Source: Bacteroidales bacterium
GTDB taxonomy: Bacteria > Bacteroidota > Bacteroidia > Bacteroidales > UBA12077
DNA: 64,000 nt
Direction: 5' to 3'
NCBI GenBank assembly: GCA_028282785.1
Contig: JANQHE010000002.1
Location: 25,149 to 89,148 of the forward strand
Part shown: piece by piece, positions 57,498-59,113 of the stretch
How positions within the stretch are numbered: position 1 is the first letter of the stretch
Layout: each line of letters starts with the position of its first letter
Translations under genes and position numbers: made by a program
Notes under the pieces: generated by a model
The model's input: only the letters and a program-made list of their open reading frames with translations
Told to the model about the DNA's origin: nothing
Database searches by the model: none

Positions 57498-58589
57498 TTA
57501 TCCAAAATAATTTTGATACACTTTTGCAATTCCTACTCGCAAGCTTATCTTATCTTTCCAACCTAAAGAGTTTAATTTTGATACATCCAACAATTTTTGG
57601 GGAGTGCCGTCAGGCTTAGAACCATCCCAATTTATATTTCCTTCAAAACCAACTATTTCTTTTATCAGTTCAGCTAATTCTTTAATGGAAATATCTTTCC
57701 CTGTTCCAATATTGATATGAGTATTCCTTACTTCCTTTTTATCTGCTTTTAAATCTGCGAAGTTAGTATTTTCCATTAAAAATACACAAGCATCTGCTAA
57801 ATCATCCGAATAGAGGAATTCGCGGCGGGGAGATCCAGTGCCCCACAAAGTAATCTGAGTTTTGAGTTTCGAGTTTCGAGTTTCGAGTTTTATACCATAC
57901 TTTAATAACTTATTTTTTATCTCTGTTTCAGATGACTTTCCATCAATTTCTTCGATTGGAAGTTTATCTAAATCTGTTCTAATACCATCCCAGTCATTTT
58001 CCATTAAACATTTACCAAGATGCATTTTGCGGATGATGGCTGGTAAAACATGTGATTTTTCTAAATCATAATTATCATTGGGGCCATATAAATTGGTTGG
58101 CATCACAGAAATAAAGTTTGTACCATATTGTAAATTGTAGGATTCACACATTTTTATTCCAGTTATTTTCGCAATAGCATATGGTTCGTTGGTATATTCC
58201 AAAGTATCTGTTAACAAGTATTCCTCTTTCATAGGTTGAGGACAGTTTTTAGGATATATACATGATGAACCTAAGAATAAGAGCTTTTTGGCCCCACATT
58301 TATAACTAAAATGAATGATGTTGTTTTGAATTTGCAGGTTATCATATATAAATTCCGCACGATAAGTATTATTGGCAACTATTCCACCTACTTTAGCTGC
58401 TGCCAAAAACACATACTCAGGTTTTTCCTTTTCAAAGAATAACTCAACTTGGTTTTGGTCCCGTAAATCATATTCAGGATAAGGAGTAAATACAAAATTG
58501 GAATATCCTTTGGATTCTAAGTTTCTTAAAATGGAGCTACCTACTAATCCTGTATGTCCAGCTATGTATATTTTGTCCTCGAATTTCAC
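57498..58589 (-). CDS. fcl: GDP-L-fucose synthase
   Basis: [52 protein letters not shown] start. Confidence 0.95.
57856..57890 (-). repeat. Heptamer tandem repeat inside fcl
   Basis: (AAACTCG)3(AAACTCA)2 on the coding strand, translated within [12 protein letters not shown]. Confidence 0.85.
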
Positions 58590-59113
58590 TAATTTATCTA
58601 ATTTTTGTTCACTAATATAGATATTTAAAAGATGAAACGTTAATATTGCAAACTTTTTGATCCAAAATTAATTAGTAAACCTAATTTAAATGTCGAAGCT
58701 TTCAAATAATTTAAAATTTGAGCTTCATGCTCAGGTGATATTTCGGATAATGCTTTTAGTTCCACAATTATTTTATTAAAACAATTAAAGTCTGCTCGAT
58801 ACTTTTTACATAATTTCTGCTCTTTGTAATAGATATCAATCTCCTGTTCTCTTTTAAATGGAATACCTTGACTTTTTAATTCTAATTCAAAAGCTTCTTG
58901 ATATACAGTCTCCAAAAATCCACAACTCAACTGTTTATGCACCTCCATCGCTGCACCTATTATTCTATATGCTTCTTCTTTATATTAATTCAACTATGTT
59001 CCTCTATACACGAATTAAACTAAACATCCAATAATTCCACAAATTACGTTAACTACATATATAGACAAATTATCATTTAAAGAAATTAGTGATCATTCGC
59101 GTAATCTGTGGAC
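58575..59113 (-). mobile_element. GxxExxY cassette bounded by 9-nt-periodic inverted arms
   Basis: Minus-strand left arm GTCCACAGATTACGCGAATGATCACTAATT (59113-59084); right arm AATTAGATAAATTAGTGAAATTCGAGGAC (58603-58575); mobility is inferred. Confidence 0.55.
58625..58995 (-). pseudogene. GxxExxY protein (PD-(D/E)XK-like), disrupted
   Basis: YKEEAYRIIGAAMEVHKQLSCGFLETVYQEA...YRADF...IIVELKA...GLLINFG; in-frame TAA before YKEE and premature TAA in LQY*RFIF*. Confidence 0.85.

Follow-up and report, generated by a model that had tools for sequence, protein, structure and literature searches.

The window, by which we mean the whole 64,000-nucleotide stretch of DNA that was analysed, carries two genes of GDP-fucose synthesis, gmd and fcl, which lie on the minus strand and are separated by a decayed cassette of the GxxExxY family (TIGR04256/PF13366). 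The features to which we refer below are as follows.

59093..60136, minus strand: gmd (GDP-mannose 4,6-dehydratase), 347 aa, with last residues and stop that appear to be read from the cassette arm.
59073..59113, minus strand: left arm of the cassette, four phased units (59113-59102, 59101-59093, 59092-59082 and 59081-59073).
59008..59072, minus strand: internal inverted units 5' of the cassette ORF (ATTTGTC at ~59064-59070, ATTTGTGG at 59037-59044 and ATTCGTG at 59009-59015).
58625..58997, minus strand: GxxExxY / PDDEXK_3 pseudogene; its longest ATG-started piece is 58640-58948.
58575..58616, minus strand: right arm, four phased ATTnGTG-type units (58616-58607, 58602-58594, 58593-58585 and 58584-58575).
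57498..58589, minus strand: fcl (GDP-L-fucose synthase), 363 aa, with a putative GTG start at 58587-58589.
58580..59099, minus strand: predicted long-range RNA helix covering the fcl GTG and flanking the gmd TGA, from the minimum free energy (MFE) structure and pair probabilities.
55973..56013, minus strand: orphan second right arm with ATTTGAG, ATTCGTG and ATTCGTGGAC units, found by a duplex scan.

An assembly artefact at the junction was ruled out, as contigs from a second study bridge both of its ends (58469-58654 and 58948-59205); a nearly identical junction is present in the contigs of that study's run.

The identity of gmd is straightforward. The protein scored 570.6 bits against TIGR01472, above the equivalog cut-off of 415, with profile positions 1-341 of 342 aligned over residues 2-340; solved GMD structures align to residues 4-340, with a best E-value of 2.4e-149, and no other gmd-like match in the genome, the completeness of which is rated at 100%, exceeds 30% identity. 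For fcl, the best solved relative is the GDP-L-fucose synthase 7anh_A (E = 6e-124), which aligns end to end over residues 2-361. The NF047922 equivalog score of 442.5 bits fell below the cut-off of 500 and came in two stretches, because an internal insertion of ~45 aa, common to the orthologues, splits the match; given the end-to-end alignment, GDP-L-fucose synthase therefore stands as the best reading of the gene, which is the only full-length fcl in the same genome. Its dN/dS against relatives is 0.04-0.08, a ratio that, with dS saturated, reflects the long-term history of the gene and not the period since the replacement of its start.

The ORF between the two genes belongs clearly to the GxxExxY family (TIGR04256, 133.9 bits against a cut-off of 35; PF13366, 126.7 bits against a cut-off of 22), and the motif residues GFLETVY, RADF and VELK are still in frame, the D and ExK of which we take to be the catalytic motif. 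It lacks an intact frame of ~120-130 aa with its own start, and we therefore class it as a pseudogene of the family. The first-pass annotation had counted two lesions in this frame; the frame is indeed damaged, but comparison with the closest intact relative, an ORF at a locus denoted L078 to which it is 72% identical at the nucleotide level (269/373), revealed three. Judged against L078 and a further cassette, G018, ATA stands in place of ATG at 58995-58997, two nucleotides are deleted near 58980/58981, and a TAA at 58640-58642 precedes the natural stop (58625-58627) by five codons. A contig from run X6 has two extra bases at 58980. To judge by record titles, relatives of the ORF occur in Bacteroidota, Acidobacteriota, Chloroflexota, Planctomycetota and others, so that the cassette family appears widespread. 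A full-text literature search on the family name and identifiers returned only passing mentions or 'function unknown' and no paper describing such cassettes, and the family thus seems to be undescribed.

The arms that bound this ORF are arrays of phased units of 9-12 nt, of the form nnnnAAT on the left and ATTnGTG on the right. A regular expression requiring at least three phased units found 26 arrays in the 5.5-Mb genome and none once the genome had been shuffled. Among them is an array at 59085-59110 of the window, which is the gmd tail together with its stop. Many of the 26 are gene-less hairpins. The same design, a PD-(D/E)XK-fold ORF between arms of three to five phased 7-8-mers placed at stop/start junctions, was verified in the genus and beyond, and we assigned the window cassette to this working class, since it has four units on each side and relatives are polymorphic for the presence or absence of a cassette at the gmd-fcl site. 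The extra arm copies recorded by the first-pass annotation were found again, a ATTTGTGG unit in 59048-59037 and an ATTCGTG unit in 59024-59008, and intact cassettes show a like layout of internal inverted units upstream of the ORF. One such copy, at 59048-59036, forms with 59112-59100 a 13-nt inverted repeat (I12) that is 92% complementary. Apart from the locus itself, a blastn search of the genome at word size 9 for further copies of the window arm type yielded only three paralogues, matched at the level of the ORF, and short AT-rich stretches (E >= 0.005). No direct repeat that might be a target-site duplication was recognised outside 59113 and 58575, where eroded junctions could have lost one. 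An Rfam scan of this locus and four congener loci, at E-values up to 1, gave nothing on the arms, its three sub-threshold plastid-motif matches lying in L013 only. Inspection of the cassette by eye did not reveal TAnnTTTG, a promoter motif of Bacteroidota-like genomes.

The arms run into the coding sequences on both sides, as had been noticed in the first-pass annotation. On the left, the 21 bases 59113-59093 of the minus strand are the last six codons and the TGA of the 347-codon gmd frame; residues 342-347 (HRLRE) and the stop, at 59093-59095, come from the cassette arm. On the right, the 15 bases 58589-58575 are the first five codons of the 363-codon fcl frame, GTG AAA TTC GAG GAC (MKFED), encoded by the last two right-arm units, and native sequence resumes at codon 6 (58574). 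The GTG at 58587-58589 is the first ATG, GTG or TTG past the upstream in-frame stop, and any later start would delete the GxxGxxG strand-loop. A GTG start is atypical for this gene, all 24 orthologues that we compared using ATG. Shine-Dalgarno sites precede 5.9% of 2127 long ORFs compared with 3.7% in shuffles, and we accordingly take the genome not to use them; leaders in the genome are instead enriched in A at -14 to -10, and that of fcl has a run of A at -13 to -17.

In order to establish whether these ends are peculiar to the window, we examined 30 gmd loci, of which 25, including the window, contain both genes, leaving a comparison set of 24. Sixteen of these junctions are tight and cassette-free, with stop-to-start spacings of -8 to +17 nt; four have spacers of 500-645 nt that hold a GxxExxY ORF, and the remaining four have spacers of 85-472 nt (L016, L024, L027 and L031), in which no GxxExxY ORF was seen by eye in a six-frame ORF listing. 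A further locus, L011, also has a cassette, on a contig that ends before fcl. The comparison with cassette-free orthologues, which the first-pass annotation had proposed, showed that the gmd and fcl termini of the window differ from theirs, and they differ from those of the cassette-bearing relatives too. In all 24 orthologues fcl has an ATG at the aligned position and the pattern M-x-x-x-S/A (S or A at residue 5). Nucleotides 1-15 of the window fcl are identical at only 5-7 of 15 positions to eight orthologues, compared with 62-90 of 105 positions for nucleotides 16-120. At the other junction end, gmd of the window terminates in VHRLRE*, and those of congeners in KRNK*, KRKG*, ERSK* and KKNE*. 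The tails extend 7-10 residues past the DY/DF motif in the nine short-tail orthologues compared, and are much longer in more distant ones; because orthologue tails vary in any case, the difference in the gmd end at the protein level is weak evidence when taken alone.

The breakpoints themselves were located with a 27-kb metagenome contig of a relative (run X5), which matches the window at 57940-58574 and 59112-60130 and has 630 other bases in place of 58575-59111, confirming that sequence identity is lost precisely at the outer limit of each arm. Five congeners, L011 included, carry at the gmd-fcl junction a different GxxExxY paralogue with CACnAAG/CTTnGTG arms. In all five, gmd retains its own TAA, and in the four with the fcl start on the locus, fcl retains its own ATG.

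The most informative relative is L078, a cassette in the gmd-fcl junction of a distant Bacteroidetes genome in which both genes keep their own ends. Its ORF is the nearest to that of the window among the 82 relatives found (70% aa identity), and it is the only one of 116 other GxxExxY loci to be flanked by gmd and fcl. In L078 a native TAA terminates gmd 7 nt ahead of the first arm unit, and fcl begins at an ATG (MNKDSKIY) 4-10 nt past the last. The gmd tail and TGA of the window (59084-59115) are identical at 26 of 32 positions to arm L078:1561-1592, and the fcl start region (58569-58594) at 24 of 26 positions to arm L078:1146-1172, neither value being reached in 1000 shuffles; we used local alignments with shuffle controls, as a global MAFFT alignment misplaced the 3' flank. 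No co-conversion tract was found between the window and L078, fcl identity being 54-60% over the first 180 nt compared with 53-82% further downstream. A similar solution is seen at another gene. The G018 cassette has similar CACAnAT/ATnTGTG arms and an ORF 59% identical in amino acids to that of the window, and its site is an overlapping TAATG junction in G003 and G024. The start codon of the downstream aminotransferase gene is the GTG of the last arm unit, at the very position where the G003 orthologue (L072) has its ATG, and the alignment points to an independent second case of an arm-donated start. The window right arm aligns to the G018 right arm, and on the left the two cassettes share an uninterrupted match of 12 bases, between 59112-59101 and the first left-arm unit in G018.

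We consider it highly probable, from these comparisons, that both gene ends are arm-derived, the last codons and stop of gmd and the start and first codons of fcl having come from the now dead cassette upon losses from both genes. What the alignments show directly is that both ends are homologous to cassette arms, where the breakpoints fall, and that orthologues have other ends. The course of events would have been as follows. A GxxExxY nuclease-gene cassette, made up of a single small gene of the PD-(D/E)XK fold flanked by inverted arms of phased short units, would have entered the normally tight gmd-fcl junction, and its gene would later have died. With ~15 nt lost from the end of gmd and ~15 nt from the start of fcl, each gene would have become fused directly to an arm. 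The gmd frame would then continue for five or six codons within the left arm, to a TGA that falls between two arm units, and fcl, deprived of its own ATG and first five codons, would start at the GTG of a right-arm ATTnGTG unit with the A-rich spacer between right-arm units as its leader. We infer this order, with insertion first and the terminal losses later. Since the congeners and L078 have a cassette and yet intact gene ends, the fusion of arm to gene seems to have arisen by the later loss of ~15 nt of each gene and not during the insertion itself. The first-pass annotation had the element invading the junction and rebuilding both ends; cassette-derived termini are borne out by the orthologue contrast, the breakpoints and the arm matches, but 'invaded' is too simple, because the cassettes of relatives leave the ends intact. 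Possible routes include replacement of the cassette type found in the congeners, a new insertion and a deletion mediated by microhomology. Neither of the peptide segments that were replaced belongs to the conserved core of its enzyme, and the fucose pathway therefore probably still works, with Gmd and Fcl both presumably active.

It might be argued that the gene ends are native, the likeness to arms being due to chance or convergence in AT-rich DNA and the cassette sitting exactly between stop and start. The genome has 32% G+C, so that short A/T-rich matches are common, and gmd tails are variable among orthologues; nevertheless, this explanation is scarcely credible in view of the two L078 arm matches (26/32 and 24/26), which beat all 1000 shuffles, the 12 consecutive bases shared with the first arm unit of G018, an fcl N-terminal pattern that all 24 orthologues share, and the break in identity exactly at the arm ends. 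Another objection concerns expression, namely that fcl lost its real start as the junction eroded and is now silent or barely translated and decaying, the GTG being merely the first start-like codon. The ATG and conserved N-terminus of all 24 orthologues would fit such a loss, as would the predicted pairing of the start (codon P(unpaired) 0.20) and a locus that is evidently in flux, in which a dead piece of a second fcl, an orphan arm and an ATPase gene that has been inserted follow immediately downstream. The orphan arm (55973-56013) forms a more stable duplex with the left arm than anything else in the window (-28.1 kcal/mol), and adjoins the fragment, a 3' piece of a second fcl (~55704-55972) identical to fcl nucleotides 818-1086 at 199 of 268 positions and 68% identical in amino acids over residues 271-362. 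We nevertheless judge a silent fcl to be quite improbable, because the 363-codon frame is intact and aligns end to end with solved GDP-L-fucose synthases, because a genome rated complete has no other full-length fcl and this one adjoins an intact gmd, because a nearly identical junction recurs in the second-study contigs, and because G018 shows the arm-GTG solution at another gene. Initiation of fcl at the arm GTG is thus the reading that we favour.

The imperfect pairing of the arms, closing with GTCC/GGAC, which the first-pass annotation had described, was reproduced: the duplex has a predicted energy of -20.5 kcal/mol, a value reached by 1 of 2000 shuffles of the right arm; of 9137 other segments of the window, 29 form a duplex at least as stable. 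The MFE structure of 58560-59130 pairs the arms in helix segments 59099-59095/58584-58580, 59092-59083/58595-58586 and 59081-59077/58601-58597, with pair probabilities of 0.53-0.65 across 58580-58601. One could therefore propose that the arms pair in the gmd-cassette-fcl mRNA and hide the fcl start or, in a coupling version, that a ribosome terminating at the gmd TGA opens the helix, the left strand of which contains this stop codon, and so exposes the GTG, which would restore translational coupling of gmd and fcl across 503 nt. Besides the MFE structure, the pair probabilities and the arm duplex energy, such a role would be in keeping with a P(unpaired) of 0.41 over positions -18 to +12, the lowest of 12 junctions compared, and coupling in particular with the rise in start-codon P(unpaired) from 0.20 to 0.59 when the gmd stop region is forced to be single-stranded. 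The absence of Shine-Dalgarno sites points the same way, as initiation should be sensitive to local structure where, as in Bacteroidota, translation proceeds without them. Taken jointly, however, we regard the two versions as unlikely. The 571-nt region folds no better than its shuffles (z = -1.19; 12 of 100 fold as well), a competing local hairpin, 59112-59100/59048-59036, takes the first left-arm unit (-22.2 kcal/mol, z = -2.89, 1 of 200 shuffles as good), and complementarity would be expected of any cassette inverted repeat, whatever its function. In addition, the fcl ATG lies outside the arms in four congeners and in L078, so that sequestration is not a conserved feature. The earlier proposal that the stem controls fucose synthesis is thus not supported so far, the helix over the GTG being a prediction (~0.65) within a region no more stable than shuffled sequence, and the arms are complementary because they descend from the inverted repeat of the cassette. 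The arrangement recalls the 'Min Jou' interaction of phage MS2, in which long-range RNA pairing couples translation of the downstream replicase cistron to that of the upstream coat cistron: here too a distant segment in or next to an upstream translated ORF pairs with a downstream start, and ribosome passage would open the pairing, although the pairing in the window is a prediction and a by-product of an inverted repeat.

Other known systems share parts of this picture. In the 'intronless homing' of T-even phages, free-standing homing endonuclease genes lie between conserved genes. The window resembles this in having a small putative nuclease gene between conserved genes, present or absent at one junction, with its relative L078 in the gmd-fcl junction of a distant lineage; however, homing endonuclease genes are not known to have inverted arms of phased repeats, and no co-conversion tract was found next to the window cassette. 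REP/BIME or REPIN elements, with their RAYT transposases, exist as many gene-less short palindromic copies and few with the enzyme gene, much as this genome has many gene-less arrays beside few copies tied to one enzyme gene, but the enzyme fold in the window is PD-(D/E)XK and not HUH/Y1, and each arm is a series of heptamers that recur every ~10-11 nt. A general view, which we think rather unlikely, would be that GxxExxY cassettes are widespread, operon-compatible, homing-like selfish elements, pre-adapted to tight junctions and occasionally rewriting the ends of housekeeping genes. The arm period of 9-12 nt is often not a multiple of three, and the GTG of the right arm and the TAA of the left CACTAAT-type arm are thus offered in more than one frame; on this model, the A-rich spacers can act as Shine-Dalgarno-independent leaders, and arm pairing can bring the stop next to the start. 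The cassette may also be junction-faithful, because its nearest relative occupies the gmd-fcl junction in a distant Bacteroidetes lineage. If this general view is correct, cassettes could occupy tight junctions within operons, including eroded ones, and cause no polar damage.

The donation of codons by a palindromic element has precedents. A paper on Coxiella burnetii describes QMITE1 and QMITE2 elements that overlap the C-terminal ends of genes by 1-50 bp, gives EnhC a 33-residue tail derived from QMITE2, and also raises the formation of stems in the mRNA (PMC5896051). As in the window, a palindromic element bounded by terminal inverted repeats lies against, or extends into, a working gene, whose final codons and/or stop it provides; in that paper, however, all functional genes affected have the element at their 3' end and nowhere else, while the window cassette would also donate a start and five N-terminal codons, and it is the gene-carrying form of another family, with arrays of phased units in place of plain terminal inverted repeats (PMC5896051). 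The palindromic elements of Rickettsia likewise add translated codons to housekeeping genes without destroying them, but they are in-frame insertions within ORFs (PMC10969869), in contrast to a cassette that lies between genes and replaces their termini, including stop and start.

The locus thus appears to present a small selfish cassette absorbed into two working genes at once, and because L078 occupies a like junction with intact gene ends, the donated codons can be traced base by base. One enzyme would have gained a new C-terminus and stop, and the next a new N-terminus together with its start codon and leader. Such arm-derived ends would go unnoticed by annotation pipelines and by start-site predictors, and a strict ATG-based caller would truncate fcl or lose it. 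For the GxxExxY cassette family, the window locus provides a documented consequence, and for the Bacteroidota it offers a simple test case of Shine-Dalgarno-less initiation and of long-range translational coupling.

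The genes gmd (GDP-mannose 4,6-dehydratase) and fcl (GDP-L-fucose synthase) lie together on the minus strand with a GxxExxY cassette between them, that is, a PD-(D/E)XK-fold reading frame flanked by inverted arms of phased short units (nnnnAAT on the left, ATTnGTG on the right). The features are listed below; L078 is the locus of a sister cassette in a distant Bacteroidetes MAG.

59093-60136, minus strand: gmd reading frame (TIGR01472, 570.6 bits, cut-off 415; solved GMD structures align over residues 4-340)
57498-58589, minus strand: fcl reading frame (NF047922, 442.5 bits, below the cut-off of 500; 7anh_A, E 6e-124)
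Within the 503 nt separating gmd and fcl, minus strand: GxxExxY/PDDEXK_3 reading frame (TIGR04256, 133.9 bits; PF13366, 126.7 bits)
58995-58997, minus strand: first lesion of the cassette frame, ATA where L078 has ATG
Near 58980/58981, minus strand: second lesion, a 2-nt deletion relative to L078
58640-58642, minus strand: third lesion, TAA for a lysine codon, with the natural stop (58625-58627) five codons later

The alignment of the fcl product with 7anh_A, a GDP-L-fucose synthase of known structure, runs end to end, and the NF047922 score is kept under the cut-off by an internal insertion common to fcl orthologues. The bases quoted in the first-pass annotation were all found at exactly the positions it gave, and its view that the cassette frame is damaged holds, although comparison with L078 raises the number of lesions from two to three. 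In a contig from sequencing run X6, TA stands as two additional bases at 58980/58981, and the frameshift is therefore polymorphic among near-identical strains.

In order to trace the origin of the gene ends, we compared them with L078 (L078:1096-1730, QKGS01000035.1), where an intact 124-aa gene, with a hairpin module on either side, lies between gmd and fcl. There the two neighbours keep their own ends: gmd has its own TAA, 7 nt ahead of the first arm unit, and fcl starts at an ATG (MNKDSKIY) 4-10 nt past the last arm unit. The L078 genome is distant, its gmd being only ~55% identical; its cassette frame is the nearest to the window's across named genomes (70% amino acid and 72% nucleotide identity), and L078 alone among 116 other GxxExxY loci is flanked by gmd and fcl; within the genus, the nearest frames are G018:C486 (59% of amino acids) and G009:C315 (57%). 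In local alignments, window positions 59115-59084, which take in the seven final codons of gmd, its TGA and nine bases beyond, are identical to the arm L078:1561-1592 at 26 of 32 positions, and positions 58594-58569, five leader bases plus fcl codons 1-7, are identical to the arm L078:1146-1172 at 24 of 26; none of 1000 shuffles was as good in either case. In addition, 12 consecutive bases of the gmd tail (59112-59101) recur unchanged in the G018 cassette as its first left-arm unit, and the outermost GTCC...GGAC pair picked out earlier corresponds to the L078 termini GTCCAC...GTGGAC. The gmd end and the fcl start are therefore both cassette arm sequence.

The breakpoints fall in the same places. 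Nucleotide identity with gmd orthologues persists as far as GTA GTC and is then gone, while fcl nucleotides 1-15 match eight orthologues at only 5-7 of 15 positions, compared with 62-90 of 105 for nucleotides 16-120. A relative's 27-kb contig (run X5) follows the window over 57940-58574 and 59112-60130 but has 630 other bases where the window has 58575-59111, an interval within two bases of the one first assigned to the cassette. Both junction ends (58469-58654 and 58948-59205) are also spanned, near-identically, by short contigs from a run in another study, so that the arrangement is not an assembly artefact.

Thirty gmd loci were taken from 60 relatives, and 25 of them, the window's included, hold both genes. 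The distance from gmd stop to fcl start is −8 to +17 nt at 16 of the other 24 loci; four have spacers of 85-472 nt, in whose ORF listings no GxxExxY frame was seen, and four (G031, G008, G021 and G009) have spacers of 500-645 nt, each with a GxxExxY gene. In the closest relative, G017 (gmd 93% identical), a cassette lies directly 3′ of gmd, and the contig stops short of fcl. All five congeners (loci L012, L013, L015, L017 and, for G017, L011) carry another GxxExxY paralogue, ~30% identical to the window's frame as estimated by eye, in the layout [CACnAAG x4][CTTnGTG x4]-ORF-[CTTnGTG x4][CACnAAG x4][CTTnGTG x4]; the copy at L013 is interrupted by an in-frame stop. Each keeps gmd's own TAA, and the fcl ATG is present in all four whose locus reaches it. 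In all 24 loci, the aligned fcl start is ATG, residue 5 is S or A, and [KVR]-I-[YF] comes next, unlike the window's (GTG)M-K-F-E-D-K-I-Y. With the L078 matches and the breakpoints, it is well supported that the arms supply, as the first-pass annotation proposed, both the stop codon of gmd and the start codon of fcl. The gmd frame runs five or six codons into the arm and ends at the TGA in the spacer between units 2 and 3, and the last two right-arm units make up fcl codons 1-5.

The gmd tails of the five congeners extend 8 residues past the DY motif; those of the short-tail cassette-free orthologues compared (L016, L018, L019 and L020) have 7-10 residues, and those of distant orthologues are much longer. 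In four of the five congeners the TAA immediately adjoins the first CAC, and their gmd stop may also be element-derived.

Since five congeners have another type of cassette at the same place, and the window's type has its nearest relative, L078, there too in a distant lineage, the gmd–fcl junction is a recurrent home for such cassettes. No raised flank similarity was found between the window and L078. At the window's junction, the data would fit a new insertion with terminal deletions after it, and would also fit replacement of the congeners' cassette.

The locus itself is a mosaic (53341-61427, minus strand), in which gmd, the cassette, fcl, an ATPase gene and a fragment from the 3′ end of a second fcl lie between two 429-aa paralogues of the UDP-glucose/GDP-mannose dehydrogenase family (60138-61427 and 54401-55690); an rfbB-like gene follows (53341-54396). 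The ATPase gene (AAA_14 + DUF4143, 392 aa, 56112-57290, minus strand) sits as an insertion between the complete fcl and this fragment, with an AT-rich spacer of ~200 nt upstream of it (57291-57497). The fragment is identical to fcl nucleotides 818-1086 at 199 of 268 positions (74%; 68% of amino acids over residues 271-362), and is joined to an orphan second copy of the cassette's kind of right arm (55973-56013, minus strand; whole feature 55704-56013) with ATTTGAG, ATTCGTG and ATTCGTGGAC units. Both arm/fcl joints read GGAC|AAAATAT, 11 identical bases (main joint 58578-58568), which may reflect microhomology or a preferred site of joining.

A second, independent case of an arm-donated start is, to judge from its sequence, the cassette of the relative G018 (L041, G018:C486), which has similar CACAnAT/ATnTGTG arms. 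At that site in G003 and G024 the upstream stop and downstream ATG overlap as TAATG, whereas the G018 downstream aminotransferase starts GTG GAT ACT TTT, with the GTG forming part of the last arm unit. When aligned with the G003 orthologue (L072), this GTG falls precisely on the ATG; in G024 (L076) the ATG is found two codons beyond that point in the 3′ direction.

Several observations suggest that fcl is still in use, with the GTG as its probable start. It is the first canonical start past the upstream stop, and later starts would delete the nucleotide-binding strand-loop. The genome, rated 100% complete, has no other full-length fcl and, apart from this gmd, no gmd-like match above 30% identity. 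In comparison with relatives, dN/dS is 0.04-0.08, with dS saturated, and the value reflects long-term history. The replaced residues fall outside the profile- and structure-aligned cores. Among 2127 long ORFs of the window's own genome (G+C 32.2%), a Shine–Dalgarno motif is found in 5.9%, compared with 3.7% in shuffles, indicating no use of it, and A is strongly enriched upstream from −14 to −10 and again at −3; together these form a Bacteroidota-like initiation signature. In the spacer between arm units 5′ of the fcl GTG, positions −13 to −17 form a run of A.

The pairing of the arms could also matter for expression, either by hiding the fcl start or by coupling fcl to gmd, so that the fcl start would become accessible once translation ended at the gmd TGA. 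In the predicted minimum-energy fold of 58560-59130 the arms do pair with each other, as anticipated, and the partition function pairs 58580-58601 with 59077-59099 at P 0.53-0.65. The duplex (−20.5 kcal/mol) is equalled by one of 2000 shuffles and 29 of 9137 window segments. The fcl start region has the lowest accessibility of 12 junctions compared (0.41), and P(unpaired) of the start codon rises from 0.20 to 0.59 when the gmd stop region is held open. These predictions are compatible with sequestration and with coupling alike. However, the predicted stability of the region as a whole does not exceed that of shuffles (z −1.19), the first left-arm unit is also claimed by a competing local hairpin, the relatives' fcl ATG lies outside the arms, and complementarity is inherent to an inverted-repeat cassette anyway. 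We therefore consider such regulation unlikely. Systems that invite comparison are, for the cassette as a whole, REP/RAYT and intronless homing and, for the predicted pairing, the MS2 long-range interaction.

The cassette layout is common to other GxxExxY genes of the window's genome and genus, and to 80 loci of named genomes. Most of the ORFs inspected (8 copies in the window's genome, 36 loci and 15 of the 80 named-genome loci) are bracketed by inverted arrays of short units at a spacing of ~9-12 nt; a minority lack the array on one or both flanks or have direct repeats only. One copy (L006, G000:C63:241841-242161, G000 being the window's genome) has two direct ~55-nt repeats, starting AATCAGCGGTTATCCGCG, on its flanks, not inverted heptamer arrays. 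The units differ from copy to copy (CACnAAG/CTTnGTG, CGCAAAG/CTTTGCG, CACAGAT/ATCTGTG, CACGAAT/ATTCGTG and others). A regular-expression search for at least three phased units gave 26 arrays in the 5.5-Mb genome and no hit once it was shuffled; the final gmd codons and stop (59085-59110) form one of these arrays. The genome also holds gene-less hairpins of ~107 nt, with three CTTnGTG-type units opposite three CACnAAG-type units, which look like an empty form of the cassette arms:

C9:31937-32043, gene-less hairpin
C17:144274-144380, gene-less hairpin
C50:20474-20580, gene-less hairpin
C56:12087-12173, gene-less hairpin
C69:76609-76695, further gene-less hairpin
C76:22157-22263, further gene-less hairpin
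C76:121608-121713, further gene-less hairpin

In the full-text literature, as far as it was accessible, GxxExxY, PF13366, TIGR04256 and PDDEXK_3 receive passing mentions only (PMC12085832 and PMC9756366 being judged by title and abstract), and a PD-(D/E)XK survey, in the part available, lists PF13366 as ‘Unknown’ (PMC3424549); within these sources, we did not find the cassette family described in print. The absorption of a palindromic element into gene ends is itself a known phenomenon. Rickettsia palindromic elements occur in-frame (reviewed, in the section available, in PMC10969869), and copies of the Coxiella MITE termed QMITE overlap the 3′ ends of working genes, giving them C-terminal residues and stops (PMC5896051). 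The Coxiella elements and the window's cassette are thus alike in being palindromic elements taken into gene ends but, whereas in the available passages of that report functional genes are affected at the 3′ end in every case, the cassette here would provide both the stop of gmd and the start of fcl.
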